The notes under the pieces: model-generated
Seen by the model: only the letters and a program-made list of their open reading frames with translations
Told to the model about the DNA's origin: nothing
Databases searched by the model: none
Assembly: GCA_002441245.1 (NCBI GenBank)
Contig: DJVP01000008.1
Coordinates: 12,593 to 76,592, forward strand
DNA length: 64,000 nucleotides
From: Candidatus Omnitrophica bacterium UBA6253
GTDB lineage: Bacteria > Omnitrophota > Gorgyraeia > Gygaellales > Profunditerraquicolaceae
Direction of reading: 5' to 3'
Made by a program: the position numbers and the translations under genes
In this document: positions 1-50,721 of the stretch, in pieces
Numbering within the stretch: position 1 is the stretch's first letter
Layout of the letters: each line of letters begins with the position of its first letter

Positions 1-222
1 CTTTCTAAATCCTCCAATTTAGTCACATCGCAGGCTACAGGCAAAACCTGAACTTTAAATTTACCGGCGATCTCTTCGGCGGTTTCCTTTAAAGGGCCCG
101 GGTTACGGGCACCAATAACTAAATTGACCCCCAAACTCGCAGCGGTAGAAGCCAAGGCCTTACCAATGCCACGGCTGGCTCCGGTAACAATCGCTGTTTT
201 TCCTTTCAGATCCAAGCTCATA
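1..222 (-). CDS. SDR-family oxidoreductase, FabG-like ketoreductase. Partial: the C-terminus lies beyond the window start.
   Basis: The reverse-complement translation starts MSLDLKGKTAIVTGASRGIGKALA. It carries the TGxxxGIG Rossmann motif of SDR/FabG. The ATG is at 220-222 and overlaps the MFS gene stop. Confidence 0.8.
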
Positions 223-1354
223 TCTCTCCCCCCATATTCTTATTGTTTACCAAACGGCTTAAATATAATAAGATTAATAACCCCGAACCAAAAACCAAGA
301 AACCTAAAACGAAACTTTTTTGCATAATTAAACCACCTAGGCTTACGCCAATGCCTCCTGAGATAAAACGCACTCCGCTATTTAAACTGGCTGCTTCATT
401 TAAGAGTTCAGCCGGCAAATCTGCAAGCATAGTGGACAAACCCACATGATTAAACGTCCATCCCAGGCCCCAAACAATCATTATCAGGACAAGCAAACTT
501 AAGGGCAGTTTTATTAAAAACGAAAAAATACACATCACCATAAGGGCAATGCCTAAATTAACCACCTTTATCCGACCTACTTTGTCAGCCAAACGGCCGC
601 CCCAAACCTCGCCAAAAATACCGCTTAAGCTGGTTAGGGTAATCAACATACTGATATAAAACTGGTTTAAGTTTAGCTGGGTTGAAAAATACACCCCCAG
701 CCACTGTTGTACAGCATGATAAATTAAACTTATGAGAAAGATATAACTGAATATCTTAATAACCTTTTTATTCCTGAAAGCCTCTAAATAACCAAACCGG
801 AAATTACCTGTATCTTCTTTAAAACTGGGAAGGCAAATATACATAAATATCCAAAGTATAAATCCGCTTAGCGCCGGGATAATAAATATCAGCCTCCAGT
901 TGATTATCCCGCTAAGGAATAACCCTAATAAAGATGCCACAAATGTAGAACCAAAAAACAAGCCTATATATCGGCCGCGTTTTTCCTCATTCAGGCGCCT
1001 GGCGATTAAAATAAGGCCTAGTGGAATAACCGAGGCGCCAAATAACCCCATCATAAATCTGGCAACAAAGAGAGAAGCGATATTCTGAGAGATCCCCGCT
1101 AAAAGATTAGCCAAGGAAAACAGGAATATACAAACCAGCTCGACTTTACGGGCATCAAAGGCGCGCACCAATGGGCCGTAGAAGAATGCCGCCAGCCCAT
1201 ACGGGATCATATACAGCCAGATAATCCTGCCTACCACAAATTGAGAAAGAGCAAAATCAGCTGCAATAGACGGAATTAACGCGGCAGATGCAGCTACATT
1301 AAAAGACAGGACCGCTCCCTCTAAACAAAGGATAATAAATGTAGCCCTCTTCAC
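218..1354 (-). CDS. MFS transporter, candidate exporter
   Basis: 378 aa with about 12 hydrophobic helices and MFS-like loop motifs such as GRIIWLY and RRLNEEKRGR. Confidence 0.8.
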   Translation of the reverse strand: MKRATFIILCLEGAVLSFNVAASAALIPSIAADFALSQFVVGRIIWLYMIPYGLAAFFYGPLVRAFDARKVELVCIFLFSLANLLAGISQNIASLFVARFMMGLFGASVIPLGLILIARRLNEEKRGRYIGLFFGSTFVASLLGLFLSGIINWRLIFIIPALSGFILWIFMYICLPSFKEDTGNFRFGYLEAFRNKKVIKIFSYIFLISLIYHAVQQWLGVYFSTQLNLNQFYISMLITLTSLSGIFGEVWGGRLADKVGRIKVVNLGIALMVMCIFSFLIKLPLSLLVLIMIVWGLGWTFNHVGLSTMLADLPAELLNEAASLNSGVRFISGGIGVSLGGLIMQKSFVLGFLVFGSGLLILLYLSRLVNNKNMGGEI

Positions 1355-1791
1355 CTGGCCGCTTCTTTTTCAATAATCTCTTTAAAAATCTTTAGATTAT
1401 GCTGCGAGCCCTCATTTATGAAACCTTCAACCTGCTGGTCATTAAACTTGGCTTTTTCATCCATATGAAAATGCTGGATCCAGGTTAATTCAATACCTTC
1501 TGGCTTGGGAGTATACAACCAGATAATCTTCATATATTCAAAAGGTAATTTTGGGGCCTCGCGTTCAGCATAAGTGAAATAATTTTCCTTAAAAAGCAGC
1601 CTCCAGGACTGCCAGGACTTATCATCTTCATCCGTGAGGCGAAAAACTATTTTGTTAGCCTCTTTTTTGACCACCTCGGCTTTTTTATACTCTGTGCCGA
1701 ATAACTCTGTCCAACGCGGGATATCATTGGATACATCAAACACTAAATCATAAGGCGCGTTGATAATTATTGAATTGCACGTATGCCCCAT
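1351..1791 (-). CDS. SRPBCC polyketide aromatase/cyclase, TcmN/WhiE-ORFVI-like (Polyketide_cyc2)
   Basis: 146 aa. The N-terminus NSIIINAPYDLVFDVSNDIPRWTELF and the later FEYMKIIWLY and WIQHFHMD closely follow the pattern I recall for TcmN ARO/CYC ([26 protein letters not shown] ... AYMNLHWTY ... WVQEFDM). Confidence 0.7.
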   Translation of the reverse strand: MGHTCNSIIINAPYDLVFDVSNDIPRWTELFGTEYKKAEVVKKEANKIVFRLTDEDDKSWQSWRLLFKENYFTYAEREAPKLPFEYMKIIWLYTPKPEGIELTWIQHFHMDEKAKFNDQQVEGFINEGSQHNLKIFKEIIEKEAAR

Positions 1792-1904
1792 AATATCCTC
1801 CTAATTTTATATTCTTTCAGGCCATATAAAACGGGCGGCTTGGACTAAATTCGAGCCGCGGTGTGCGGAGAGAAACAGCCCAAGACAGGATCCGTTTTAA
1901 TAAA

Positions 1905-2705
1905 TTAATCTACAAGAGCGACAACCCGGGCCCAGGCGGCCCCGGTATTCTTAATCCGAATCGGAAAACAAATAACTTTAAAACCACAACCAGGAAGTTT
2001 CTCTAGATTAGCCAACCTTTCTATATGGATAAACTCCTTCTTGCGGCCGTAAAAATGCGCCGGGTAAAATGTTTTAGGATCATTTGTTTTTAAGAACTCG
2101 CTTAACATAAACCTATAAGGCCGGTCAATGCCCATAGTATCTACGCCGAATATTTTTATACCGGCCCCTAATAGAAACTCTATTGCAGACGGGTCAACCC
2201 CCGGATAATCTGAAAAATATCCTGGCCCACCATAAAGCTTATCCGCGCCAGTATGCAATAATACAATATCCAAAGGCTTAAGCTGGTATTTTATTTCCTC
2301 AAGCGCTGATTTTATATCATGCGCATTAATTACTTCATCTGGTTTTTTATGGGTCAGGTTTAATTTTACGCCGTTTTGATAACAATATTCCAGGGGAATC
2401 TCATCCGCTGTCTTTGATGGCCGGTTTTCTGTCTTTGAGCCATAATGGAAGGAATAATCCAGGTGGGTTCCTATATGCACCGGGGCATGCACAATCTCTA
2501 AAGACAGGAATTCCTTATCAGGCAGTTGCTCTTTCTTAATAATACGCATGCCTAATGCGTGTTTTATCTTGCCCAAAATTGTCTTGCCCATGATGACGCG
2601 GTTAAACTTGCCGACTCCGGCTTTATGGCTAACGCGCTCGATATCCACCTTGTGCACTTCAAAGGCCTTCTCGTCAATGGGCAGGCTCAGGTCAATAATC
2701 TTCAT
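1905..2705 (-). CDS. Cyclase-family protein (PF04199, 'putative cyclase', kynurenine formamidase-like fold)
   Basis: 266 aa. It has the HAPVHIGTHLDYSFH metal-binding His motif and the C-terminal GVDTMGID typical of this family. Confidence 0.75.
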   Translation of the reverse strand: MKIIDLSLPIDEKAFEVHKVDIERVSHKAGVGKFNRVIMGKTILGKIKHALGMRIIKKEQLPDKEFLSLEIVHAPVHIGTHLDYSFHYGSKTENRPSKTADEIPLEYCYQNGVKLNLTHKKPDEVINAHDIKSALEEIKYQLKPLDIVLLHTGADKLYGGPGYFSDYPGVDPSAIEFLLGAGIKIFGVDTMGIDRPYRFMLSEFLKTNDPKTFYPAHFYGRKKEFIHIERLANLEKLPGCGFKVICFPIRIKNTGAAWARVVALVD

Positions 2706-2932
2706 TTCGCTAATTTTGACTGTATAGTGCTGGCGATATCATTTATTGTTGAATTCTTGGTTATCTCTTTAATGTTAAGCTTTACCCCGAATGACTTCTC
2801 CAGGGCAATTACCGATTCCACCATTTCAGTAGAATCAACCCCGATGCTATTTTGCAAAGAAACATCGTCTTTGAGTTCTTCAATCTTTACTTTCAATAAA
2901 CTTGCTAATACTTCTTTAACTTTATCCTTCAT
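2702..2932 (-). CDS. Acyl carrier protein
   Basis: 76 aa, acidic, with GVDSTEMVE matching the ACP phosphopantetheine-attachment motif (DSL/DST). Its stop overlaps the cyclase gene start. Confidence 0.8.
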   Translation of the reverse strand: MKDKVKEVLASLLKVKIEELKDDVSLQNSIGVDSTEMVESVIALEKSFGVKLNIKEITKNSTINDIASTIQSKLAK

Positions 2933-2941
2933 CTACTCCTC

Positions 2942-4402
2942 CTATATCTGCACTTCGCCCTTGGTCGCGGCGGCTTCCCATTTATTAATACCGTTCATAA
3001 CATCCTGAAAGCAAAGTTTGGCCAGCGGATCAAAATTACTCTCCATAATACGGTTTATCCTTCCAGGCTTTGAAAAAAACTCACGCATACACCAAGAACC
3101 CAGCCTCCCTAAATCTTCCGTAGAAAGATGGTCTGTAGGGATTACCGGATGGAGAAAATCCCATTGGCTAAAGTCAACCTTCTTGGGATCGATCCAGTTT
3201 TTCTTTAAAGCAATCCTCCACATCGGAGAATTCGGGGCAGGAGTGACATAACCTACCCACAGGACATCCGGGTCCACCTGGTCAGTAAACTCAAAACGCT
3301 GTTTGACAATTTCTTCGGTATCATAATCAAAACCCATCATAATATCGGCGACAATTGCGATATCATTTTTACGAAACATCTCTATGGTTTTATTGATCTG
3401 GTCAATGGTAATGCCTTTGGCTATTTTCTTAAGCTCTGATTGAGTGGTAACCTCAATGCCAAAAACACCCATAAATAAACCGTTCTCTTTCATCAAAGGC
3501 AGGATAGATTCGCAATTAACCCAATCAATAGCCCGGCCTAAAGATACCCACTTAATCGGGTTATTAGATGCTTTCTTAAGTTCGCAAAATTTCTGCACTC
3601 TTTTAGGATCTACATTAAAATTATCATCCTGGATAACCACCACCTTAACCCCGTATTTTCTATGCAAAAGATTCAGTTCTTCCATTACCCTTTCTGGAGA
3701 TTTGGCGCGCCATTTTAAGAAATCCGATGGGGAGCGCGGGTCAAACTGGTCCCATTCATAACAAAAGGTACAGGCTGAAGGGCATCCTCGGGATGTAACC
3801 ATATCTACGAATGGTTTCCAATAAGTATGGCCTACATATTTATCCATCGGGAACAAATCATACGCCGGCAAAGGAAGTTTATCCAGATCTTGCATAAGCG
3901 GCTTATGCGGCCCCATAACAATTTTCCCATCAATACGGCAAGTAGCCCCGCCCACGTCGCCAAGCGGCTTATTTTTATCTATTGCCTCAATTAAATCCCC
4001 AAAGGATTCCTCCTCGCCCATAACCACAAAATCAACCGCGGGATTCTCCTCCAGCGTAGGCACAGGCATTGCCGAATACCATAACCCGCCAAAAATTATT
4101 TTTGTCTTAGGTAAAACTTTTTTAATCCCTATGGCCGCGTCTTTAAAATGACGCAAGACTCCATAGCCGCCATAACCGTGCAGCTGTTCACCCATAACTA
4201 CGATATCGGGATTCTTCATTTTTACCTGCTCAACCAGTTGTTCCATGGGTATTTGATCGGCCTTTCCGTCAATAACAGCTACATCTTCATAGCCTCTTTC
4301 ACGCACATACGCAGCCCAATGCGCATATAACTGGTTTGGAGATCTATGTATTCCATGAGTTGCCCAGGCACCGACTTTCGGCATAACAAATAATATCTTC
4401 AT
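2942..4402 (-). CDS. B12-binding-domain radical SAM protein, class B, candidate C-methyltransferase
   Basis: 486 aa. An N-terminal cobalamin-binding-like domain is followed by the radical SAM core CPSACTFCYEW (CxxxCxxC). Confidence 0.85.
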   Translation of the reverse strand: MKILFVMPKVGAWATHGIHRSPNQLYAHWAAYVRERGYEDVAVIDGKADQIPMEQLVEQVKMKNPDIVVMGEQLHGYGGYGVLRHFKDAAIGIKKVLPKTKIIFGGLWYSAMPVPTLEENPAVDFVVMGEEESFGDLIEAIDKNKPLGDVGGATCRIDGKIVMGPHKPLMQDLDKLPLPAYDLFPMDKYVGHTYWKPFVDMVTSRGCPSACTFCYEWDQFDPRSPSDFLKWRAKSPERVMEELNLLHRKYGVKVVVIQDDNFNVDPKRVQKFCELKKASNNPIKWVSLGRAIDWVNCESILPLMKENGLFMGVFGIEVTTQSELKKIAKGITIDQINKTIEMFRKNDIAIVADIMMGFDYDTEEIVKQRFEFTDQVDPDVLWVGYVTPAPNSPMWRIALKKNWIDPKKVDFSQWDFLHPVIPTDHLSTEDLGRLGSWCMREFFSKPGRINRIMESNFDPLAKLCFQDVMNGINKWEAAATKGEVQI

Positions 4403-4447
4403 TTCTTCTCCTTTTTAACTGCTCAACGATTTTAATTTACCTGCATG

Positions 4448-5683
4448 CTATATACTGCCTTTTTCGACTACCAGGGCTGAATTGATCCCGCCGCGGCCGC
4501 GCGAGACAATCAAAGATTTATTTACCTTATATTCCCTGGCTTGCTTAGCCACATAATTTATGTCTCTTAGAACCGGAGTATCCAGATTCAATGTCGGAGG
4601 AATCAAACTATGTTCCATAGACAAAAGTGCAATAATCATATCCAGCGCTCCGGATGCTCCAAGAAGATTACCGAACATGGATTTCGGGCAACTCACAGGA
4701 ATATTTTTCAGGGCGTCTGCGAAAACTAACCTCAGCGCCTTGATTTCAGAATTATCCCAAAGATCAACTGCCAGCCCATCCAAACTTATATAGCCGATAT
4801 CTTCAGGTTTAGCTTTAGCGTCATTAAGCGCCATATTTATAGCCCGCGCCAATTCCTTGCCATCGGAAGCAGGATTAATCCTATCTACTCCGTCGCAAGT
4901 TGTACCATATCCGCTGATAAACCCCAGAATATTTGCCCCCCTGCTCCTGGCTCTCTGGATATTCTCCAACACCACAATACCCGAGCCCTCGCCGATGACA
5001 AAACCGCTGCGGCCTTTATCAAACGGCCGGTATGCAGCTTGAGGATCATCATTGCGGGTAGAAAGCGCCCCATATGTATTGCAACATAATAAGGCGTAAG
5101 GAGTAACCGGCGCTTCCATTCCTCCAGCTAAAATCAGGTTCAATTTGTTTTTATACAAAACCTTCCTGGCATAACCTAATGCCATAAGGGAACTTGCCCG
5201 GTCACTGACCATGGTCTTGCTGAATCCCTTTATGCCATAATAAATAGATACCTGGCCTTGGGGGGCAGCGGGAAACCAGGCAGAAGCCATATAAGGAGAA
5301 ACCCCCTCCCGACCTTCTAAATACAAATCCCTTAATTCTGTCTCGGCGTAAAGCCAGCCGCCGATGGCATTGCCCAAAAATATGCCAACAAGATTCGGAT
5401 CCTCATTTTTAATATCTATACCCGCATCCTGCAAGGCTAATTCTGAAGCAACCAGCGCCATATGCGAAAAGGCATCGATCTTCTTAAGCAGCCTTTCGGA
5501 TATATGGCTATACTTTTCCAAATCATCAATTTGCCCTGCTATGTGCGCCGGGTATTTTGAAGCATCAAAACGCGTAATTTCCTTAATAAAGGAACGGCCG
5601 CTTTTAATATTCGCCCAAAACTGCCGCTTACCAATACCCGAAGGGCTGACTACCCCTATCCCTGTAATTGCTATCTTTTCCAT
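4448..5683 (-). CDS. Ketosynthase-like protein without a catalytic triad (KS-beta or chain-length-factor-like partner)
   Basis: 411 aa with a thiolase fold. The active-site stretch TMVSDRASSLMALG has no Cys. The His positions read YISLDGLAV and GNLLGASGALD, so both His are lost. Its start overlaps the stop of the upstream KS at 5683. Confidence 0.8.
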   Translation of the reverse strand: MEKIAITGIGVVSPSGIGKRQFWANIKSGRSFIKEITRFDASKYPAHIAGQIDDLEKYSHISERLLKKIDAFSHMALVASELALQDAGIDIKNEDPNLVGIFLGNAIGGWLYAETELRDLYLEGREGVSPYMASAWFPAAPQGQVSIYYGIKGFSKTMVSDRASSLMALGYARKVLYKNKLNLILAGGMEAPVTPYALLCCNTYGALSTRNDDPQAAYRPFDKGRSGFVIGEGSGIVVLENIQRARSRGANILGFISGYGTTCDGVDRINPASDGKELARAINMALNDAKAKPEDIGYISLDGLAVDLWDNSEIKALRLVFADALKNIPVSCPKSMFGNLLGASGALDMIIALLSMEHSLIPPTLNLDTPVLRDINYVAKQAREYKVNKSLIVSRGRGGINSALVVEKGSI

Positions 5684-6945
5684 TACCCACCGAACCTTTT
5701 AAAAATTAAAGAAGAGTGTATCCCGGAAAAACCACTGCTGGTTTTAAGGATCATGTTTACCTTTTTCTCGATTGCCTGATTAGGTATATAATACAAATCA
5801 CATTGAGGGTCTTTTTCCTCCTGGTTTATTGTAGGAGGAAGGATATTTTTCTCAAAAATCATGCTGGCAATGGTCATCTCAATGGCATTTGCCGCAGCCA
5901 AGGGGTGACCAATCATAGATTTAAATGAACTGATGGGCAGCTTATAAGCATACTCCCCGAAAATCGCCTTGTAAGCACTGGTCTCAAAGATATCATTCAT
6001 CCGCGTGCTTGAGCCATGGGCATTAATATAATCAATATCCGCAGGTTTAACATCAGCGTCTTTTAGTGCCAGGGCAATGCAGGTTTCCATGGCTTGGCCA
6101 TCAGAAGGAAGGTCAGTCATATGAAAGGCATTACAGCTAGTGCCAAAGCCTAAAACTTCGCAATAAATCGGCGCGTTACGTTTTAGGGCATGGTTTAATT
6201 CCTCAAGCACCAGGAGCCCCGCCCCTTCACCTAAAACGAACCCATCCCGCTTATTATCAAATGGCCGCGATGCTTTTTGAGGCTCGTCATTATGCACAGA
6301 TAAAACATTCACTACATCAAATGCACCAAAGGTAATCGGAGTAAGCGGCGCCTCTGCTGCTCCGCAAATCATTATATCCTGTTCGCCATCCTGGATAGTC
6401 TCTAAACCAAACCCTAAAGAATCCGTGCCGGCAGTACATCCTGTAGAAATAGTATTGCAGATTCCCTTTAAGCCAAAACGTGCGCTGATTTCTATTGAAG
6501 GGGTATTAAACATCGCCGCGTCATAAAGGTCAGGCCGCACAAGAGCCGGCTCAATTGGCTTCTTGCCATCTTCGGTAACTAAAGCAAACTCTTCTTCCAT
6601 ATACTTAGTGCCGCAAATCGCATTTGCCAGACAAACTCCCACGCGCTGCGGATCTTCTTTTGAAAAATTTAATTTACTATCTTCAACCGCCATTTTACCG
6701 GCGGCTACTCCAAACTGAACATAGCGGTCCATACGTATAGCTTCTTTGTGGCTTAAGCCCAGCTTAAAAGGGTCGAAATCCCTGACCTGAGAGGCAATTT
6801 TTGTATTAAAAACCGATACATCAAAACCCTCGACTAAACGCACCCCAGATTTGCCGCCTGAAAAACCATCCCAGGCATTCTTTTTACCAATGCCGTTAGG
6901 AGAAATTATTCCAATACCAGTAATAACTACTCTGCGTTTAGACAT
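5683..6945 (-). CDS. Beta-ketoacyl synthase (KS-alpha or FabF-like) with an intact Cys-His-His triad
   Basis: 420 aa. It has ISTGCTAGTDSLGFG (Cys), INAHGSSTRMND (His) and SMIGHPLAAANAIE (His). Confidence 0.9.
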   Translation of the reverse strand: MSKRRVVITGIGIISPNGIGKKNAWDGFSGGKSGVRLVEGFDVSVFNTKIASQVRDFDPFKLGLSHKEAIRMDRYVQFGVAAGKMAVEDSKLNFSKEDPQRVGVCLANAICGTKYMEEEFALVTEDGKKPIEPALVRPDLYDAAMFNTPSIEISARFGLKGICNTISTGCTAGTDSLGFGLETIQDGEQDIMICGAAEAPLTPITFGAFDVVNVLSVHNDEPQKASRPFDNKRDGFVLGEGAGLLVLEELNHALKRNAPIYCEVLGFGTSCNAFHMTDLPSDGQAMETCIALALKDADVKPADIDYINAHGSSTRMNDIFETSAYKAIFGEYAYKLPISSFKSMIGHPLAAANAIEMTIASMIFEKNILPPTINQEEKDPQCDLYYIPNQAIEKKVNMILKTSSGFSGIHSSLIFKRFGG

Positions 6946-6948
6946 AAA

Positions 6949-7554
6949 TTATTTATTCTCCTTCACTCTTTTGACCTTAAAAATAATATTCCCGCCGTCA
7001 GGGCAGGTAACCGTATCAATTGAATCCGGGTCATTCATAAAGAAAAACTTTGCCCCGAAGTTTAAGGCAAACAATGCCGGGAACGCTGTATGAAAAGCCG
7101 CCCCGCAGAAACCAGGTATACATTTTAAACCTTGCGTCTCCCATTTATCGCCAACCTTATATCCAAAACTGCATCTGCCTTTTGCCTTAACCACTTCAAT
7201 AATCATCTTCTTAGGATTAGGGCCTTTGTGATCCGGATCACGGGGGATCACCTCAAGTTTGCCTTGCCTATCCAGGACTTCTGCCTTAAACTCCAATTTC
7301 CCTCCATCAGGGCAGGTAACTAATAACGAGCGCTGATTATCGCGGAACCCGAATTTCGCCCCGAAGCTTAAAGCGTATATTACCGGAAAAAGCGCATGCG
7401 CCAGGCCTAAACAAAAATGCTCCGGCGCATGGGTGAAATCCTCTAGGAAAATTTCATCCCCAACCTTGTACCCATGATAGCATTCACCAAAAACCTGGCT
7501 GACCGTAAGCTTTAATCTTGGGAAAGGAGTATTCACAGCTCTATTTTCGCTCAT
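6949..7554 (-). CDS. Tandem-domain TIGR04076-like protein, function unknown
   Basis: 201 aa made of two homologous halves of about 95 aa each: CYHGYKVGDE...FCLGLAHALFPV...FGAKF...VTCPDGGKLEFK and CSFGYKVGDK...FCGAAFHTAFPA...FGAKF...VTCPDGGNIIFK. Confidence 0.5.
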   Translation of the reverse strand: MSENRAVNTPFPRLKLTVSQVFGECYHGYKVGDEIFLEDFTHAPEHFCLGLAHALFPVIYALSFGAKFGFRDNQRSLLVTCPDGGKLEFKAEVLDRQGKLEVIPRDPDHKGPNPKKMIIEVVKAKGRCSFGYKVGDKWETQGLKCIPGFCGAAFHTAFPALFALNFGAKFFFMNDPDSIDTVTCPDGGNIIFKVKRVKENK

Positions 7555-8564
7555 TTTAATTTGGCAACTTTTTGAATTCTTTCAAATAACTCAGCTTTAC
7601 TATAAAACTTTTTACTTTTCTCAACCTCATGCACCATATCAACCAAGACGCTATTTAAAGGCGACTGAATATTATTTTTCCCGGCAAGACGCACAAATTC
7701 CCCGTTGATATAATCAATTTCTGAATTGCGCCCTCGCATAATACTTTGCAATATAGAGCCATAAAGCGGCTCCTTACTCAAATTTCTCATGGTTTGTGAA
7801 AAGATTTCTGCTGCTTGAGCAATCGGCAAAGAGGTTAACTTAACAACATTCTCCACAGGAAAACCCGGCAGGGAAACTAATTTTATGCCTGCCTTATCAA
7901 CAACACCAAGCGCCTCTTTCCAGATAGCAATACTTATATGGCTTATATCGTGGTCACTAAAAACCTCCTGCATGCTCTTACCTAATATCCCCGGCAGGCA
8001 GTTGTTAGCATTAGCGAATATTTTTAAAAACTTCATCCCGGTAATATCCTCGGCTATTATAACGGGAAATGCCTTATTTAAAACACGGCTTAAATCCGGT
8101 AATACTTCTGGATGCCTTCCATCAAAAGGCCAACCTATTATCCAGGGTCCTTCAAAATTATGCACCAGCTTGGCCGACTCCAAATAAGTGGAGCCGAACA
8201 TAACAATACTGGAAACTATATTTTCTTTAGGCAGTAATTTCGCAACAATGCTGTCCGCCTGCACGCCATTCTGGATAGTCAGAATTAATGCATTGCGAAT
8301 AAGGCTTAAGTTATTTTTTATGGCGTATTCAATATCCTGGGTTTTAGTCGCCAGGATCACTAGCTCCGGAGCATAATTAAGCTGTTCGGAAATATTGATC
8401 TTGACCCTAAAGGTTCCCCGTACACCGGATATCTGCAGTCCGTTTATTTTTATAGCTTCTATTGAATTCGTCCGGCCGACTAAAGATACATCCTGGCCTT
8501 CTAATTTAAGATAAGCGGCCACAAGACAGCCAATCGCACCCGAACCAATAACCCCTATATGCAT
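7551..8564 (-). CDS. Ketopantoate-reductase-family (PanE/ApbA) NAD(P)-dependent oxidoreductase
   Basis: 337 aa. N-terminal MHIGVIGSGAIGCLVAAYL Rossmann motif, with length and C-terminal domain typical of 2-dehydropantoate 2-reductase family ketoreductases. Confidence 0.7.
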   Translation of the reverse strand: MHIGVIGSGAIGCLVAAYLKLEGQDVSLVGRTNSIEAIKINGLQISGVRGTFRVKINISEQLNYAPELVILATKTQDIEYAIKNNLSLIRNALILTIQNGVQADSIVAKLLPKENIVSSIVMFGSTYLESAKLVHNFEGPWIIGWPFDGRHPEVLPDLSRVLNKAFPVIIAEDITGMKFLKIFANANNCLPGILGKSMQEVFSDHDISHISIAIWKEALGVVDKAGIKLVSLPGFPVENVVKLTSLPIAQAAEIFSQTMRNLSKEPLYGSILQSIMRGRNSEIDYINGEFVRLAGKNNIQSPLNSVLVDMVHEVEKSKKFYSKAELFERIQKVAKLK

Positions 8565-8566
8565 AG

Positions 8567-8845
8567 TTAACTCTGGCCTTCAGGAAAGCCGTATTTCTTG
8601 TAATCAAATCCATTTTGCTCTAAAAGACGGACCATCATGCTGTAAAAAGGCGATGGCACGTCAGAAAAAAAGGCGCTGACCACATCCTGCTCCTCTACCT
8701 GGGAGGATTTACGCAAAAGGGCATTATTTTGCGCCTGCTGAATAACCACTGACTCAGTAATCCGGCGGTGAAATACGGGGATCTTGGATATCAACAGTTT
8801 AAACTTTTCTTCAGTTTTAGTTTCCCAAACCATAACTGGCCTCAT
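8567..8845 (-). CDS. Hypothetical small protein, first ORF downstream of the PadR gene
   Basis: 92-aa ORF with no recognisable motif. It sits 3 nt upstream of the PanE-like gene. Confidence 0.35.
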   Translation of the reverse strand: MRPVMVWETKTEEKFKLLISKIPVFHRRITESVVIQQAQNNALLRKSSQVEEQDVVSAFFSDVPSPFYSMMVRLLEQNGFDYKKYGFPEGQS

Positions 8846-8880
8846 TAGGAATAAAAGTTACATCCGGGATGTTAATTTCA

Positions 8881-8902
8881 ATATAGTAAAATTTTACTAT
8901 AT
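8881..8902. promoter_or_regulatory. 22-bp perfect palindrome ATATAGTAAAATTTTACTATAT, a candidate operator
   Basis: An exact inverted repeat seen in the sequence. It lies between a sigma70-like promoter and the first cluster ORF, directly downstream of the PadR gene. Confidence 0.4.
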
Positions 8903-8913
8903 TTTATTTGATT

Positions 8914-8942
8914 ATTTTATAATCTAGCGCCATTTTTGTCAA
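8914..8942 (-). promoter_or_regulatory. Sigma70-like promoter: TTGACA, 17-nt spacer, TAAAAT
   Basis: Minus-strand read TTGACA AAAATGGCGCTAGATTA TAAAAT, with the -35 at 8937-8942 and the -10 at 8914-8919. This is sequence inspection only. Confidence 0.3.
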
Positions 8943-9029
8943 GCAAGAAATTGGGCACCTTATAGTTTTTGTCTGGCGAAATCCTGCCGAGTTTACGAAA
9001 CAGGACAAGCCCCTTTCAAGGATGAAAGA

Positions 9030-9545
9030 CTAAATCTCCTTGAGCAACGTATTAAGAAATTCCGATTCTGCCTGAAGCAGGCAAAGGTTGTGTTTCAGTA
9101 TGCGCAATAATGAAATTGAATTCTTCAGCTTCCTGGTTTTAAGTGTTTCTTCTATACTAGAGGATATCTTCTTTAATATCGTAAGCCTAGCAGCCAGGCG
9201 CCGACGGCTTAAAGCAGGTTTTAGATAATCCAGGAAATATAAACTTAGGTCTAAGCTGAATTGCGGACGTTTAAAGTTAAGCAGGCTTTTATTCAACAAT
9301 TCATCAAAGCGGTCTTTGCCTTTTTTGGTAAGGCGATAAACAAACCGCTCCGGCCTCTTGCCTTCTTTGCCGGCATGTTTATCAAGCAGGCCTTTTTTCT
9401 CTAAGACTTTCAATGGATAATATATGGATTTTAAATCAACCCCGGCAAAAAGAGAAAGGATTTGGCGTATCTTGATCTTAATTTCATAACCATGCCTGGG
9501 GCTTTGACGCAATAAACCTAATAATAAAAACTCCTGCTCAATCAT
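9030..9545 (-). CDS. PadR-family transcriptional regulator
   Basis: 171 aa. The N-terminal winged-helix stretch LLLGLLRQSPRHGYEIKIKIRQ...YYPLKVLEKKGLL is PadR-like. Confidence 0.85.
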   Translation of the reverse strand: MIEQEFLLLGLLRQSPRHGYEIKIKIRQILSLFAGVDLKSIYYPLKVLEKKGLLDKHAGKEGKRPERFVYRLTKKGKDRFDELLNKSLLNFKRPQFSLDLSLYFLDYLKPALSRRRLAARLTILKKISSSIEETLKTRKLKNSISLLRILKHNLCLLQAESEFLNTLLKEI

Positions 9546-10489
9546 CCGGTAATACCTATATCCCTGAATTTCTTATACCTTAATTTAAGCAATTCATCGC
9601 CATCAAGGCCTTCCAGTTCTTTTAAATTTCTTATGATCGCCTCTTTTACGTTCTGGGTTATTTTTGCAGGATCACGATGCGCCCCGCCTAACGGCTCAGG
9701 AATTACTTCGTCAATAATCCCCATATTTAATAAATCTGGACCGGTTAGCTTTAAAACTTCAGCTGCCTGGGGCGCCTTTGCACCATCCTTCCAAAGGATT
9801 GCCGCACAGCCCTCCGGAGAAATCACTGAATAATATGAGTTTTCCAAAACTGCTACACGATCTGCCACTCCCACGCCAAGGGCGCCTCCGGAGCCCCCCT
9901 CTCCAATAACAATTACCATAATCGGAACTCTAATACACATCATTTCCCGCAAATTAAGCGCGATTGCATGTGATTGCCCGCGTTCCTCTGCGCCAATACC
10001 GGGATAAGCTCCCGGCGTATCAATAAAAACTACAACCGGTAATTGAAACTCTTCGGCCAGCTGCATAACACGCAGCGCCTTACGGTAACCTTCGGGATGC
10101 GCACAACCAAAATTACGCTTAAGGTTTTCTTTGGTATCGCGGCCTTTTTGATGGCCTATAACCACAACCTTCCTTTTATCGATCTTAGCCAGGCCACAAA
10201 CCATTGCCTTATCATCGCTAAAAAGACGGTCACCATGCAGCTCCATAAAATCCGACATAATCATATTTATGTAATCCAGGGTATAGGGCCGCAGAGGATG
10301 CCGGGCAAGCTGTACCTTCTGCCAGGCAGTAAGATTGCTATAGGTATCTTTTCTTAAATGCTCCAGCCTTTCTTCGAGTTTCTTGACTTCAGAGGATAGA
10401 TCAATTTTCTTCTCGGAGATAAAGGTTTTAAGCTCCTGGATCTTTTTCTCTAACTCAATAATGGGTTTTTCAAAATCTAGTCCGGCCAT
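9542..10489 (-). CDS. accA: Acetyl-CoA carboxylase carboxyltransferase alpha subunit
   Basis: 315 aa. N-terminal LDFEKPIIELEKKIQELK, the carboxyltransferase fold GGSGGALGVGVADRV, and a C-terminus typical of AccA. Confidence 0.9.
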   Translation of the reverse strand: MAGLDFEKPIIELEKKIQELKTFISEKKIDLSSEVKKLEERLEHLRKDTYSNLTAWQKVQLARHPLRPYTLDYINMIMSDFMELHGDRLFSDDKAMVCGLAKIDKRKVVVIGHQKGRDTKENLKRNFGCAHPEGYRKALRVMQLAEEFQLPVVVFIDTPGAYPGIGAEERGQSHAIALNLREMMCIRVPIMVIVIGEGGSGGALGVGVADRVAVLENSYYSVISPEGCAAILWKDGAKAPQAAEVLKLTGPDLLNMGIIDEVIPEPLGGAHRDPAKITQNVKEAIIRNLKELEGLDGDELLKLRYKKFRDIGITG

Positions 10490-10494
10490 AAGAA

Positions 10495-11307
10495 TTATTC
10501 GACTATCGTAACCTCTGTTCCTGTGGGAATAATATTATAAAGTTCCTCTACATCTGAGTTACTCAAACGAACACAGCCCTGAGTCACCTGCTTTCCTAAT
10601 TCTTTAGGCTCTATGGTACCATGGATTCCGTATCCAGCCAGGTCAAATCCCATCCAACGCGTACCCAGCACATTCTCCGGGCTTCCCGCAGGCACTACTG
10701 CCCCAGCTCTAAACCAGGTAGGATTAGCAAGCTTATTAATAATCTTGAATACGCCTACGGGAGTGCAACTATCTTTCCCTGTAGATACAACATAAGTCTT
10801 TATCACCTCTTCGTCACTTTTAAGCAACATGATATTTTGGGATTTATCTACCAGTATGCTGAAAGGTGCATTCCATATCTTTATTTTACGCCCGGGGATT
10901 ATCAGCGAATCGCTGATATTATTGCTTTTCATAATAAGCTCAGGGGTAGTTTTATGTTCACGGGCGATCTTATTAAGGGTATCCCCAGATTTTATCTGAT
11001 AGATTATGCTCTTGGGGGTAATTGCCGGAGAGAATAACAATTTAATGTTTATCTCCTCCGACTTCTTTTGCCAAAGAGCTACCTCGGGGGACTCCGTAAA
11101 GTCATTCACTAATTTTTGATATATCGACTTGGCCTCGAGTAACTCACCTTTAGCCTCAAACTGCCGCGCCTGGTTAAGTAAATTATGAACGGACGGACGA
11201 TTACTTGCCAGCTTAATTATGTCTGCGGGCCTTTTCAATATCAGGACAATAAAAATACCCGCTATCGCTATTGCTGCCAGAATTACAATTAAGAATTTCT
11301 TATTCAC
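10495..11307 (-). CDS. LysM-domain L,D-transpeptidase (YkuD family)
   Basis: 270 aa with an N-terminal membrane anchor. The LysM segment is YQIKSGDTLNKIAREHK. The catalytic stretch is GIHGTIEPKELGKQVTQGCVRL, with the His and Cys of YkuD. Confidence 0.8.
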   Translation of the reverse strand: MNKKFLIVILAAIAIAGIFIVLILKRPADIIKLASNRPSVHNLLNQARQFEAKGELLEAKSIYQKLVNDFTESPEVALWQKKSEEINIKLLFSPAITPKSIIYQIKSGDTLNKIAREHKTTPELIMKSNNISDSLIIPGRKIKIWNAPFSILVDKSQNIMLLKSDEEVIKTYVVSTGKDSCTPVGVFKIINKLANPTWFRAGAVVPAGSPENVLGTRWMGFDLAGYGIHGTIEPKELGKQVTQGCVRLSNSDVEELYNIIPTGTEVTIVE

Positions 11308-11320
11308 CTAGGCCTCCGTT

Positions 11321-11779
11321 TTATCTCTGCCCTGACCAGGATACCAGGGCAATAACAATACCTAAAAACAACCCCATGATAACTTCTACGGGTGTATGCC
11401 CAATGAGCTCGCGCAGGCGCATCTCCTGAATCTTGCCCTGCCAATAAATATCATCCATAATCTTATTTAGGATACCTGCTTGTTTGCCTGTAGAGCGGCG
11501 GACGCCTTGGGCATCAAACATAACCACAATGGCAAACGCAAAGGCTAAAGCAAAATATACGCTGTCAAAACCGCAATCCATCCCTATGCTCATTGCTAAG
11601 CATGAAGCCCCTGCTGCATGCGCGGACGGCATACCGCCGCTGCCTATAAACAGACGAAAATCAAATTTCTTTTTACGCAATACCCCAATGCCCACCTTAA
11701 TCGTCTGAGCAATCAGCCAGGCAGAAATAGTGGTCATCAGAATCTTGTTCCTGTATATTTCTACAAAAAAATCTTTCAT
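11321..11779 (-). CDS. Divergent PAP2-family membrane protein (DUF212)
   Basis: 152 aa. SGGMPSAHAAGASCLAMSIG is characteristic of the 'divergent PAP2' family. Confidence 0.7.
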   Translation of the reverse strand: MKDFFVEIYRNKILMTTISAWLIAQTIKVGIGVLRKKKFDFRLFIGSGGMPSAHAAGASCLAMSIGMDCGFDSVYFALAFAFAIVVMFDAQGVRRSTGKQAGILNKIMDDIYWQGKIQEMRLRELIGHTPVEVIMGLFLGIVIALVSWSGQR

Positions 11780-12357
11780 TATTCCTTGGTTTGAGCCGGA
11801 ACCACTTCAATTTTAATCTTTTCCTGGATAACCGGCTGGCCATTTCTTATCAAAAACCCGTGGTTTCCTTCAGTTAGCGATGCGCGAACTTTGCGTTTTG
11901 CGGCCCTTAATTCCCTTATTGCTTTCTTGAGCTCAACAACGGAGCTTAATTTGGCCTTAAATTGTTCATTTTCCGCATAAATACGCTTATGCTGGTCTAT
12001 TAAAACCTTATTCTCGGCCTTTAATATAGAAAATTTGGCGCTTGTGTTATCAAGATTGCCCTGTATTCTAGCCTTATCCTGAAAAAGGCGCGCAATCTTA
12101 TTCTTACTTGCCTTTAAATAATTCAAGAGTCCGGAGTTTTTTAACGCCAGGCGCTCTTTTAGTTCTTTTTCCTTCCCCAATTCCTGCAATAAGTTTTGTT
12201 TCTCTTTTACTAATACAGCAACCTCATCTTGCGCTTTGGTTAGGCTATCTTGAAGCCTGCACCTTGCCTTTAATTCACTTAGGTACCTGACCATGCTAAA
12301 AACAGTGATACTTAACAACAAAATGGTCAATATGTTCTTAACAGCACCTTTACTCAT
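11779..12357 (-). CDS. Membrane-anchored coiled-coil protein, hypothetical
   Basis: 192 aa. An N-terminal TM helix is followed by long heptad-like K/E/L-rich sequence. Confidence 0.4.
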   Translation of the reverse strand: MSKGAVKNILTILLLSITVFSMVRYLSELKARCRLQDSLTKAQDEVAVLVKEKQNLLQELGKEKELKERLALKNSGLLNYLKASKNKIARLFQDKARIQGNLDNTSAKFSILKAENKVLIDQHKRIYAENEQFKAKLSSVVELKKAIRELRAAKRKVRASLTEGNHGFLIRNGQPVIQEKIKIEVVPAQTKE

Positions 12358-12603
12358 AGGGTTATATTATATAATCTGCCGACTAAAAAGCAAGCACTTT
12401 ATAGCCTTATCTAGCGCAGTCTTTGTAATGGTTAGCGAACATAGGCAAGCTATTTTCTCCTAAAAACAAGTTAGATTATTCAGTATCAAACGTCTATAGT
12501 CTTAGGTTAGATAACCATGGCATGGCTTCCGATAGCCTACTAAGCCACAGGCCGGAGGGCCGTGGTTCGGTATCTGATAGCCTAAGCCAAAAACGGAGGA
12601 AAG

Positions 12604-14133
12604 ATGATCTCAAAAACTAACAGCTTTGGCCTTATTGGTTTAGAGGCTTATCCGGTTGAAATAGAGATTGATGTATCCAAAGGCCTTCCGGCAGTAACCC
12701 TGGTTGGACTAACAGATACAGCCATCAAAGAAAGCAAGGAAAGAGTACGCTCGGCAATCAAAAACTCAGGATTTCAATGGCCCACACAAAGAATAACTGT
12801 AAACCTGGCCCCTTCTGACATCAAAAAAGAGGGGGCCTGTTTTGACCTAGCCATTGCTCTGGGAATCCTGGCTTCAACCGGGCAGATTAACGGGGACCTT
12901 CTTAAAAACTATATTTTCTTAGGAGAATTATCCCTGGATGGGCAAATTAGGCCGGTGCGCGGAATATTAGCCATTAGCTTAGCCATGGCCAATTCACCTG
13001 TTAAAAATCTCGTACTTCCGGCAGAAAATGCCAAAGAAGCCGGGATAGTTCCTAATTTATCCGGTTGGCCGCAAAATAATCTAAAGGAAACGGTACAGTT
13101 CCTAACAGACCTCCTGCCTAGGCAGCCTTTTAAGGCTACTCCGGAACAAACGCTAAGGATCAATACAAATTATGCTTTGGATTTCTCTGAAGTCAAAGGT
13201 CAATACTTTGCTAAAAGGGCGCTTGAAGTAGCTGTTTCAGGAGGACACAATATTGTTTTAATCGGCCCTCCTGGCAGCGGGAAGACTATGCTCGCAAAAA
13301 GAATTCCTACGATCATGCCCAGTTTGACTTTAGACGAAGCCCTGGAGATAACCAAAATCCACTCTGCAGCTGGCACATTATTGAACAAGGATGGATTTAT
13401 GGGAACCAGGCCATTCCGCTCTCCGCATCATAGTATTTCAGATATCGCTTTAATCGGCGGCGGCAGCATACCTAAGCCAGGAGAAATAAGTTTAGCGCAT
13501 TACGGGGTCTTATTCCTGGATGAACTACCGGAGTTTAGCCGTAAAGCCCTTGAAACACTAAGACAGCCCTTGGAAGATAACTTAATTTGTATCAGCCGCA
13601 TAAAACGCACGCTAATCTTCCCTGCTTGCTTTATTTTAGCCGCCGCGCTCAACCCCTGCCCCTGTGGAAATTATTTTAACCAGCGAGAAACCTGTCATTG
13701 CCATCCCACGAAAATCAAAAATTACCTGGGTAAAATTTCCGGCCCCCTGCTTGACAGAATCGATATACACATCGTGGTCCCGCAGATAAAATACCATGAA
13801 TTATCAAATGTAAAAGAAGCAGAATCCTCGGAAACAATCAGGCGGCGCGTAGAGAACGCACGGGCAATACAACATAAAAGATTCAAATCTGCGGGGATAT
13901 TCTGTAATTCCCAGATGCCTAACAAACTAATCAAAGAATACTGTTTTTTAGACAAGCAGGCACAAGAATTACTGCGCATGGCCATATCAGAACTAGGGCT
14001 CTCGGCAAGGGCTTATGATAAAATCTTAAAAGTAGCAAGGACAATCGCAGATTTAGATCAAAAAGAAGTCATTTCTCAAGAGCATATCGCGGAGGCAGTA
14101 CAATACAGATCCCTGGATAAAAAACAAATTTAG
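12604..14133 (+). CDS. comM: YifB/ComM-family Mg-chelatase-like AAA+ ATPase
   Basis: 509 aa. Lon-like N-terminal domain, Walker A GPPGSGKTM, and the Zn-finger-like CPCGNYFNQRETCHCH typical of ComM/YifB. Confidence 0.9.
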   Translation: MISKTNSFGLIGLEAYPVEIEIDVSKGLPAVTLVGLTDTAIKESKERVRSAIKNSGFQWPTQRITVNLAPSDIKKEGACFDLAIALGILASTGQINGDLLKNYIFLGELSLDGQIRPVRGILAISLAMANSPVKNLVLPAENAKEAGIVPNLSGWPQNNLKETVQFLTDLLPRQPFKATPEQTLRINTNYALDFSEVKGQYFAKRALEVAVSGGHNIVLIGPPGSGKTMLAKRIPTIMPSLTLDEALEITKIHSAAGTLLNKDGFMGTRPFRSPHHSISDIALIGGGSIPKPGEISLAHYGVLFLDELPEFSRKALETLRQPLEDNLICISRIKRTLIFPACFILAAALNPCPCGNYFNQRETCHCHPTKIKNYLGKISGPLLDRIDIHIVVPQIKYHELSNVKEAESSETIRRRVENARAIQHKRFKSAGIFCNSQMPNKLIKEYCFLDKQAQELLRMAISELGLSARAYDKILKVARTIADLDQKEVISQEHIAEAVQYRSLDKKQI

Positions 14134-15405: not shown

Positions 15406-15489
15406 AAGTAATTCGATTATACCACTTCCATCACAAAGTAGTAGGGCTTTATAGCAAAACAGCTGCTAATGTTCACTTATATATTGTTT

Positions 15490-15575
15490 TAGGTTTACAG
15501 TAAAGGAATTATTTCTCAAAGGCAAATTGCGGAGGCAGTTTAATACAAATTCCCGGCAATAAAGATTATTTTGTA
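15490..15575 (+). repeat. Decayed copy of the comM 3' end
   Basis: atttctcaaaggcaaattgcggaggcagtttaatacaaattcccggcaataaagattatttt aligns at about 75% identity to comM 14071-14133 (atttctcaagagcatatcgcggaggcagtacaatacagatccctggataaaaaacaaattt). It translates in frame to ISQRQIAEAV* versus ISQEHIAEAVQYRSLDKKQI*. Confidence 0.6.
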
Positions 15576-48969: not shown

Positions 48970-48971
48970 AC

Positions 48972-50720: not shown

Positions 50721-50721
50721 T

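Follow-up and report, generated by a model that had tools for sequence, protein, structure and literature searches.

A 64,000-nucleotide stretch of contig DJVP01000008.1 from Candidatus Omnitrophica bacterium UBA6253 (the window) begins with a set of minus-strand genes that we consider, with good confidence, to be a single operon for a clostrubin-like, 'ancestral' aromatic type II polyketide synthase (PKS), and a vertically inherited, strongly constrained trait of an Omnitrophota lineage. The central claim of a preliminary description of this DNA was that it encodes a type II PKS-like cluster in a non-actinobacterium, and the clades of its two ketosynthase (KS) proteins, its acyl carrier protein (ACP) and its cyclases all agree with that claim. 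The genes had been described as co-directional and mostly overlapping. Every open reading frame (ORF) was recovered at the same coordinates on the minus strand, with Pfam and NCBIfam in agreement on the domains (Table 1), and neighbouring cluster genes overlap or lie only a few bases apart. One base, in TAATG, belongs both to the stop codon of KS-alpha and to the start codon of KS-beta, and ATGA or GTGA overlaps link the PanE-like reductase to the TIGR04076 protein, the ACP to the PF04199 cyclase, the SRPBCC protein to the major facilitator superfamily (MFS) transporter and, upstream, accA to the PadR gene. Type II PKSs are usually viewed as patchy, fast-evolving antibiotic clusters of actinomycetes. 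Here, in a largely anaerobic phylum without cultured members, a type II PKS has the character of core genes, being vertical, colinear, conserved at the level of AccA and accompanied by an invariant candidate operator, and this character speaks for an aromatic polyketide that serves the physiology of its host.

Both ketosynthases belong to type II PKS lineages

KS-alpha had been credited with an intact Cys-His-His triad and its KS-beta partner with no catalytic residues; in alignments the triad is intact in KS-alpha, and KS-beta has neither the Cys nor either His. The KS-alpha motifs STGCTAG and NAFHMT are common to AntD, the actinorhodin (Act) KS-alpha and one Streptomyces KS-alpha; FabF carries TACA(T/S)G at the position of STGCTAG. 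In the PDB ranking for KS-alpha, AntD (370.4 bits) and Act KS-alpha (369.8 bits) stand above every FabF, the best of which is that of B. subtilis (361.4 bits), and identity to the Act and Streptomyces KS-alpha proteins is 41-44%. In KS-beta the Cys is replaced by Arg, the first His by Asp and the second His by Asn, with the Lys retained. Its active-site context is VSDRASS, so that Arg takes the place of the Gln of actinobacterial chain-length factors (CLFs), where the Gln is a hallmark and serves as the priming decarboxylase. Arg at the Cys position (the DRAS motif) is also present in the CLFs of Ktedonobacter, Archangium, Azospirillum and Bacillus and in ClrB of the clostrubin cluster. Since Arg is common to these non-actinobacterial CLFs, on these alignments the Gln feature defines an actinobacterial CLF subgroup and not the whole family. 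A Streptomyces 'ketosynthase chain-length factor' protein scores 221 bits to KS-beta and 107 bits to KS-alpha, and the order is reversed for a Streptomyces KS-alpha (381 bits to KS-alpha, 260 bits to KS-beta).

A neighbour-joining tree (Kimura-corrected p-distances, 411 columns, 200 bootstraps; not maximum likelihood) places the Omnitrophota KS-alpha within the type II PKS KS-alpha clade (98.5%) and KS-beta, together with the Streptomyces CLF, within the CLF clade (100%). The FabF proteins of E. coli and B. subtilis and four intact-triad proteins treated as FabF-like lie outside both clades, although as a set they are not monophyletic (14.5%). The preliminary description had named a position of the KS pair inside FabF/FabB clades as one finding that would count against it; the two proteins lie in the KS-alpha and CLF clades instead.

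It is highly improbable, on the same data, that the block is an ordinary housekeeping fatty acid synthase module in which the KS pair are FabF/FabB paralogues. The FabF model TIGR03150 is strong on both proteins (462 and 378 bits), accA lies upstream in this genome and the block is highly conserved. However, both scores fall under the TIGR03150 cutoff of 493.75, KS-beta has neither catalytic Cys nor His, both KS proteins branch outside FabF, and accA is adjacent in only 28 loci. The window and 1.23 Mb of flanking sequence from 80 related species gave no homologue of FabH, FabD, AcpP, FabZ or FabI, nor does FabD, FabH, FabZ or FabI adjoin the cluster in any of these 80 loci; a lipid module with FabD/FabZ adjacent was another outcome that the preliminary description had set against its reading. 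The TIGR03150 scores, the dead KS-beta, the missing Fab partners and the tree thus refute a housekeeping module as far as sequence analysis reaches.

Relatives of KS-beta were sought among 1.84 billion cluster representatives, a search crowded by giant type I PKSs. The nearest single-domain relatives outside the Omnitrophota are from a Deltaproteobacteria-labelled metagenome-assembled genome (MAG; 58% identity) and two metagenome proteins (P0251, 45%; P0249, 44%), followed by ClrB (C. beijerinckii / C. puniceum, 43%), the Ktedonobacter racemifer CLF (40%) and an Archangium protein (39%), and DRAS(S/G) is common to most of them. In homologue searches with KS-beta and with the TIGR04076 protein, all 120 matches listed were Omnitrophota orthologues.

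The operon is a vertically inherited Omnitrophota trait

The window cuts the operon, which extends ~3 kb beyond its left edge. The remaining part was read from locus L001 (the same contig in public assemblies), where the genes that follow are, in order, the rest of a short-chain dehydrogenase/reductase (SDR), a secreted CBM_11-like protein, a 137-aa protein (orf137) and an Amidohydro_2 enzyme, after which there is usually a PNP_UDP_1 phosphorylase and then an MtnA-like isomerase (L001:17452-18767). The genes described earlier at 1-9545 are thus real, but the cluster is truncated by the window edge and includes one more gene, orf92; likewise the SDR is a reductase as described, but its extent has to be corrected (Table 1).

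A KS-beta relative occurs in 179 species genomes (one genome per GTDB species), and the best 80 of these, with 77-95% identity, were examined as loci and are all from Omnitrophota. The operon is colinear in 36 of the 36 species-level loci that are fully covered, which is not chance. Nine genes, including the SDR and orf92, are present in all 36, with the radical SAM gene in 35, Amidohydro_2 in 35, PNP_UDP_1 in 34, orf137 in 33, the MFS gene in 28 and the CBM_11-like gene in 21. Median identity to the window is 90% for the radical SAM enzyme (67 loci), the most conserved product of the operon, and 87% for SDR, 85% for KS-alpha, 84% for TIGR04076, 81% for KS-beta, 80% for SRPBCC and 71% for orf92 (63 loci). 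The corresponding values for flanking genes are 81% for AccA, 78% for DUF212, 70% for LysM/YkuD and 66% for the Mg-chelatase-like protein. Divergence of the cluster genes follows that of the flanking genes, with a Spearman rho of 0.73-0.90 for KS-alpha, KS-beta and TIGR04076 and 0.45-0.59 for the radical SAM enzyme. Divergence that tracks the flanking genes is, as judged from these comparisons, the pattern of vertical inheritance under strong purifying selection, and is unlike that of a mobile antibiotic cluster. Because the operon is inherited in this way and is conserved like the neighbouring housekeeping genes, 'secondary metabolite' may be the wrong frame for it.

Some third-party annotation records with the operon at 80-92% identity (L011, L020, L023, L028 and others) are labelled 'uncultured Planctomycetales'. 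In the operon as well as in its flanks these records resemble Omnitrophota MAGs, and this is probably a matter of taxonomy labels. Candidatus Omnitrophica is one of 14 phyla for which a catalogue of CLFs published in 2023 gives KS-CLF matches, with no further analysis (PMC10132072). A literature search found no paper describing the operon, its conservation, its operator or its link with TIGR04076.

Aromatic cyclases and a decarboxylase homologue accompany the minimal PKS

The N terminus of the SRPBCC protein had been noted to resemble TcmN and WhiE, and matches in the PDB bear this out; a failure of the protein to group with polyketide aromatase/cyclases was the third outcome that would have weighed against the preliminary reading. 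Its only significant PDB matches are seven chains of TcmN and WhiE-type polyketide cyclases, among them the TcmN aromatase/cyclase (ARO/CYC; 2rez, E = 6.8e-23) and WhiE (3tvr, 3.8e-21); one other match is non-significant. Ten residues, in TcmN numbering W28, F32, Y35, W65, S67, R69, W95, W108, Q110 and N136, are conserved in this protein, and the same ten are kept in the SRPBCC copies of the Deltaproteobacteria-labelled MAG and of the clostrubin cluster. In TcmN these positions belong to the catalytic pocket. The loop bearing TcmN T54 and W63 is five residues shorter.

Orthologues of the PF04199 protein with 42-46% identity adjoin KS/CLF pairs in seven clusters, from Clostridium, Bacillus, Priestia, Paenibacillus and three MAG lineages. 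The paper on dendrubin names this PF04199 type OxyN and regards KS-CLF-ACP-TcmN-OxyN as the ancestral architecture, with ClrB grouped with the wexrubicin CLF in an ancestral clade (PMC7693217). The gene order KS-alpha, KS-beta, (radical SAM), ACP, PF04199, SRPBCC fits that architecture. The Amidohydro_2 enzyme beyond the window is nearest to non-oxidative aryl-carboxylate decarboxylases, namely LigW (1.1e-27), gamma-resorcylate decarboxylase (1.7e-23) and ACMSD, and its placement would fit the loss of a terminal aromatic carboxylate.

TIGR04076 recurs with type II PKSs of this class

ClrC, the 175-aa carrier protein of clostrubin biosynthesis (L095:11260-11787), is a fusion of TIGR04076 with an ACP. 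Residues 5-81 match TIGR04076 with 42.7 bits (cutoff 33) and residues 98-152 form the ACP, and 4 kb further downstream the locus has another TIGR04076 ORF, this one on its own (L095:15656-15946). The protein is labelled 'TIGR04076 family protein' by NCBI and acyl carrier protein by UniRef, and a search with ClrC retrieved three proteins only. TIGR04076 domains are also found in tandem in the Deltaproteobacteria-labelled MAG, as two ORFs directly upstream of KS-alpha in locus L102 and, in a type II PKS cluster of Paenibacillus, beside the PF04199 cyclase gene. Such repeated co-occurrence and the ClrC fusion connect TIGR04076 with the ACP and the minimal PKS in clusters of this class, and in this way the family gains a context, that of the acyl carrier protein of anaerobe type II PKSs, through gene fusion and co-occurrence in five lineages. 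Three Cys, K-x-G, a Pro and an Asp are invariant in nine TIGR04076 domains from these five PKS lineages, which suggests a metal site. A profile search of TIGR04076 against PDB sequences gave chance-level matches only, and an AF2 model (pLDDT 77) gave no confident fold match. The preliminary description could not match the combination of a B12-radical SAM enzyme and TIGR04076 to any characterised cluster. That statement does not hold, as the clostrubin cluster has six shared components in the same order, including TIGR04076.

Oxygen-independent tailoring candidates

The cobalamin-binding radical SAM enzyme scores 208 bits with the BchE model, 156 with HpnJ and 69 with the ladderane model TIGR04072 (cutoff 360), all of them under cutoff. 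This enzyme also raises the unlikely alternative that the operon belongs to a ladderane-like or specialised fatty-acid or lipid pathway, in which KS, dead KS and a dedicated ACP would assemble an acyl chain for the B12-radical SAM enzyme to convert into an unusual membrane lipid. The concept is that of anammox Cluster I, which has a FabF2/FabFmut heterodimer, amxACP and a B12-radical SAM enzyme and is conserved in its clade (preprint 10.64898/2026.05.19.726425), and 'ladderane' clusters have been reported, and found to be expressed, in Omnitrophota and Desulfobacterota MAGs (PMC9902471). Vertical conservation across the lineage at housekeeping level would suit a membrane lipid, as would the dispensable MFS gene, and the cluster copy in the Deltaproteobacteria-labelled MAG adjoins MMPL and DUF1329 genes of lipid-transport-like character and has a phytoene-desaturase-like flavoprotein. 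However, the ladderane pair 9s5h_B/C gives 281/205 bits with KS-alpha and 215/186 bits with KS-beta, compared with 370 and 268 bits for the Act KS-alpha/CLF, both KS proteins are in PKS clades, and the TIGR04072 score is far below its cutoff. Nor does the cluster contain a FabZ-type dehydratase or an enoyl reductase, and a TcmN-type aromatase with a conserved pocket and an aryl-acid decarboxylase homologue have no role in making an acyl lipid. The antiSMASH 'ladderane' rule probably files such clusters under that name. Because of its KS and B12-radical SAM content, the operon is likely to be included in the published 'ladderane' calls in Omnitrophota and Desulfobacterota MAGs, which may in part be this PKS.

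Both reductases, the SDR and the PanE-like protein, are invariant members of the operon. The best NCBIfam model for the SDR is 3-ketoacyl-ACP reductase (155 bits, under cutoff), and the PanE-like gene has a counterpart at the corresponding place in the clusters of the Deltaproteobacteria-labelled MAG (51% identity) and L102 (40%). Two ketoreductases working with an iterative KS/CLF would suit a highly reducing type II PKS of the ishigamide, aryl-polyene or cispentacin type, which would yield a reduced polyene or alicyclic acid, and the NCBIfam cispentacin models AmcF (167 bits, KS-alpha) and AmcB (31 bits, ACP) give partial matches under cutoff. We regard such a PKS as very unlikely. No dehydratase domain was found among the cluster proteins with Pfam or NCBIfam, Iga11 (6kxd_A) scores 241 bits to KS-alpha compared with 370 bits for the aromatic KS-alpha, the ARO/CYC, the OxyN-type cyclase and the aryl decarboxylase homologue are all present, and the nearest characterised cluster yields clostrubin, which is aromatic.

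The MFS protein had been described as an exporter. The domain is confirmed, and the protein may export the product, but export is not obligatory because the gene is absent from 8 of the 36 complete loci; the cluster of the Deltaproteobacteria-labelled MAG has a copy with 37% identity.

Other clusters of this CLF class repeatedly carry candidates for oxygen-independent tailoring, in the form of B12-radical SAM, HemN-like radical SAM or U32 proteins. The Paenibacillus cluster (L100:15666-20173) encodes a Peptidase_U32 protein and a pair of HemN-like radical SAM proteins, the L097 cluster (7412-8572; 1-1515) has a U32 protein and a 695-aa B12-radical SAM protein, and a Chitinivibrionales MAG cluster (L101:4977-6431) has a B12-radical SAM gene. 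The U32 family includes the O2-independent ubiquinone hydroxylases UbiU/V. Orf92 weakly matches (27%, E = 6e-6) the C-terminal end of the Paenibacillus U32-family ORF (L100:19910-20164), a hint that orf92 is a detached domain of U32-type proteins. These oxygen-free tailoring candidates are relevant to the decoration of polyphenols where O2 is absent and to the form of the ancestral type II PKS.

The PNP_UDP_1 phosphorylase at the distal end has a median identity of 86%, and its best scores are with uridine or purine phosphorylase models, under cutoff. The Deltaproteobacteria-labelled MAG contains a PNP_UDP_1, MtnA, IF-2B and class II aldolase set (L091:18456-21278). The PNP_UDP_1/MtnA/aldolase set resembles a salvage route for 5'-deoxyadenosine and methylthioadenosine (the 'DHAP shunt'), and could recycle the by-product of the radical SAM enzyme.

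An invariant palindrome precedes the operon

The 184-bp gap between PadR and orf92 contains a sigma-70-like promoter, TTGACA-17-TAAAAT, and an 18-bp perfect palindrome, ATAGTAAAATTTTACTAT, that occurs once in the window. Promoter-like sites overall are no more numerous than expected from shuffled sequence, so the support for this promoter is its position beside the palindrome. The 16-bp core of ATAGTAAAATTTTACTAT is exact in 58 of the 60 species loci with enough flanking sequence, and the other two have one uncompensated substitution each. All 60 intergenic sequences are distinct and the palindrome is their sole conserved element; in L007-L086 it lies ~3.2 kb upstream of KS-beta. Because it is invariant amid variable intergenic DNA, ATAGTAAAATTTTACTAT appears to be a functional site, most simply a candidate operator. 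The palindrome can also fold as an RNA hairpin, and an Rfam scan of positions 1-13000 found no riboswitch or other RNA family. A protein-binding site is favoured over an RNA role because both variants are single uncompensated changes.

PadR, the candidate binder of the palindrome, had been described as lying immediately upstream. This is so in the present genome, where its gene overlaps accA by 4 nt and is the last gene of an upstream housekeeping operon, but it is not a conserved part of the cluster, since of 57 loci only 34 have PadR next to the operon, whereas 55 have the palindrome. The proposal that accA supplies malonyl-CoA for the cluster is weak for the same reason, as accA is adjacent in only 28 of about 57 loci. 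Non-conserved adjacency rules accA out as a cluster member.

Proposed pathway and product

We propose that the KS/CLF pair joins malonyl units into a poly-beta-keto chain that is carried by the ACP and left unreduced, with the malonyl transferase and phosphopantetheinyl transferase (PPTase) supplied in trans from elsewhere in the genome. The TcmN-type cyclase would close and aromatise the first ring and the PF04199 cyclase would close a later ring, after which the Amidohydro_2 enzyme could strip the terminal aryl carboxylate. The BchE-like B12-radical SAM enzyme, the PanE-like reductase and the SDR would then tailor the rings without O2, and the tandem TIGR04076 protein may be a direct partner of the minimal PKS and its ACP, perhaps by way of a metal bound by three Cys. 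Transcription would start at the strong promoter and be gated by a palindrome-binding regulator, which may be PadR where it is adjacent.

The most likely product is a cyclised aromatic polyphenol tailored without oxygen. It is probably a polyphenol or quinone-like pigment, or another redox-active compound, that serves core physiology and is not an antibiotic of particular strains; a physiological product is favoured over a competitive antibiotic because conservation is at housekeeping level. Clostrubin has been reported to function in oxygen tolerance, and by analogy the product may protect against oxygen or oxidants, or it may shuttle electrons. A more specific version of this proposal, which we offer tentatively and regard as rather doubtful, is that the product is a redox-active aromatic polyketide, made without oxygen and essential to the lineage, which would serve these Omnitrophota as a core metabolite, either a quinone-like electron carrier or an oxidant-protective pigment. 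In this version TIGR04076, with a Cys3-metal site, would work with the ACP and minimal PKS in anaerobe type II PKSs generally, and the BchE-like enzyme would catalyse oxygen-independent ring oxidation, cyclisation or C-methylation of a polyketide, both being enzymology not yet described. PNP_UDP_1/MtnA, with the aldolase in the Deltaproteobacteria-labelled MAG, would recycle the 5'-deoxyadenosine released by a radical SAM step of high flux.

Several points weigh against an aromatic PKS with a physiological product. The cluster contains two reductases, and monodomain TcmN-type cyclases usually work on unreduced chains. The operon has no malonyl-CoA:ACP transacylase or PPTase, and decarboxylative priming may differ with a CLF that does not have the actinobacterial Gln. 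The internal resolution of the neighbour-joining tree is weak, with only 58% for the grouping of Omnitrophota and the Deltaproteobacteria-labelled MAG with clostrubin and Bacillus. Proteins of the PF04199 family with 35-40% identity also occur outside PKS clusters, and because of these more distant members the proposed cyclase role rests on co-occurrence. The aromatic product is predicted from the genes, the reaction of the BchE-like enzyme is a prediction, and the physiological role is drawn wholly from conservation and the clostrubin analogy. The ~11-kb operon is a defined target for heterologous expression.

Features of the locus and its surroundings

The features of the operon and its upstream region are collected in Table 1. 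Outside the cluster the window encodes, as had been described, housekeeping functions; they include V-type ATPase, purine, pyrimidine and cell-envelope genes. Three long ORFs without a Pfam match at E <= 1e-8 (38338-40269, 42902-44401 and 60368-61606; 643, 499 and 412 aa) sit among these housekeeping genes near the V-type ATPase operon (44818-51855). At 24285-27460 a lysine-2,3-aminomutase-like radical SAM gene is followed by a tandem paralogous pair of D-Ala-D-Ala-ligase-type ATP-grasp genes.

Table 1. Features of the type II PKS operon and its upstream region (window coordinates).
Feature	Position	Strand	Evidence and remarks
SDR/FabG-like reductase, N-terminal 73 residues of 258 aa	1..221	-	Truncated by window edge; identical to the L001 SDR
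MFS transporter, 12-TM drug/H+ antiporter-like, optional operon member	218..1354	-	PF07690 (MFS_1) 147.8 bits
TcmN/WhiE-type aromatase/cyclase, monodomain, SRPBCC fold	1351..1791	-	Polyketide_cyc weak in Pfam, 28.9 bits
PF04199 cyclase, OxyN-type second cyclase, metal-dependent fold	1905..2705	-	PF04199 98 bits
Discrete ACP, 76 aa, DS(T) phosphopantetheine site	2702..2932	-	PF00550 (PP-binding) 45.4 bits; GVDSTEMV motif read from sequence
Class B (cobalamin-binding) radical SAM enzyme, BchE/HpnJ-like	2942..4402	-	PF02310 + PF04055
KS-beta / chain-length factor, Arg type, motif DRASS	4448..5683	-	ketoacyl-synt
KS-alpha, Cys-His-Lys-His intact	5683..6945	-	ketoacyl-synt
Tandem TIGR04076 protein, two ~90-aa repeats with three invariant Cys apiece	6949..7554	-	TIGR04076 101.9 bits, two stretches
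PanE/ApbA-family NAD(P)H ketoreductase	7551..8564	-	PF02558 + PF08546
orf92, 92 aa, first operon gene	8567..8845	-	Weak DUF2621 match, 7e-5
18-bp palindrome ATAGTAAAATTTTACTAT, candidate operator	8883..8900	.	13 nt past the -10 box
Sigma-70-like promoter TTGACA-17-TAAAAT, 11/12	8914..8942	-	Best-scoring site in 12.7 kb
PadR-family regulator, long type	9030..9545	-	PF03551; TIGR03433 38 bits
AccA	9542..10489	-	Domain search

Comparison with known systems

Type II PKSs outside the actinobacteria are already documented, and the interest of the present operon appears to lie in its core-gene behaviour, in TIGR04076 as an apparent component of anaerobe type II PKSs and in oxygen-independent tailoring. 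The clostrubin (clr) cluster is, on sequence comparison, its nearest characterised relative. Both have the same set and order of KS-alpha (48% identity), Arg-type CLF (43%), ACP, PF04199 cyclase (45%) and monodomain TcmN-type SRPBCC protein (41%), with an Amidohydro_2 gene (34%) further on and two TIGR04076 domains, and the clostrubin host is an anaerobe. However, of the two clostrubin TIGR04076 domains one is joined to the ACP and one stands alone as an ORF, whereas those of Omnitrophota are fused together. The clr cluster does not have the B12-radical SAM, PanE-like reductase, SDR and orf92 genes of the Omnitrophota operon and has genes of its own, encoding CMD, DUF362 and DUF169 proteins, two PPTases, FrsA-like hydrolases and a KSIII. 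The clr CLF relatives named here are from two Clostridium species only, whereas the Omnitrophota operon is vertical across at least 80 species.

The cluster of the Deltaproteobacteria-labelled MAG (L091/L093) and that of L102 share with the Omnitrophota operon the gene order PanE, two TIGR04076 domains, KS-alpha, KS-beta, ACP, PF04199 and SRPBCC, with Amidohydro_2 later. Identities to the MAG cluster are 63% for KS-alpha, 58% for KS-beta, 56% for TIGR04076, 54% for SRPBCC, 51% for both the radical SAM enzyme and PanE, 50% for PNP_UDP and 48% for Amidohydro_2, that is 37-63% overall and 48-63% when the ACP, the PF04199 cyclase and MFS are excluded. In the MAG the radical SAM gene lies upstream of PanE, and orf92, SDR, the CBM_11-like gene, orf137 and the palindrome are absent. 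The MAG has additional genes that the Omnitrophota operon does not have, namely two of the aldehyde:ferredoxin-oxidoreductase family (tungsten/molybdopterin) flanking the PKS core (L091:4887-6860, 14213-16192), a flavin amine-oxidase/desaturase, and MMPL and DUF1329 upstream. L102 differs in its split TIGR04076 ORFs, an FMN reductase and two amine oxidases, with no radical SAM gene in the 11 kb available.

The actinobacterial aromatic type II PKSs (actinorhodin, tetracenomycin, WhiE) share with the Omnitrophota operon the coupled KS-alpha/CLF pair, the discrete ACP and TcmN/WhiE-type ARO/CYC proteins. The whiE cluster is also conserved within its genus, and its product is a pigment and not an antibiotic. 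Unlike these systems, the Omnitrophota operon has Arg rather than Gln in its CLF and has no oxygenases, TcmI or SnoaL cyclases or didomain ARO/CYC, and its tailoring candidates are the B12-radical SAM enzyme and the PanE-type reductase. Finally, ladderane Cluster I of anammox bacteria (amxFabF2/amxFabFmut, amxACP, amxFabZ, PDH and B12-radical SAM) resembles the operon in the logic of a KS and inactive KS heterodimer, in its dedicated ACP and cobalamin radical SAM enzyme and in its clade-wide conservation in a lineage related to the Planctomycetes-Verrucomicrobia-Chlamydiae. The Omnitrophota operon differs from it in having no FabZ, in belonging to another KS lineage and another radical SAM family, and in possessing aromatic cyclases and an aryl decarboxylase homologue.

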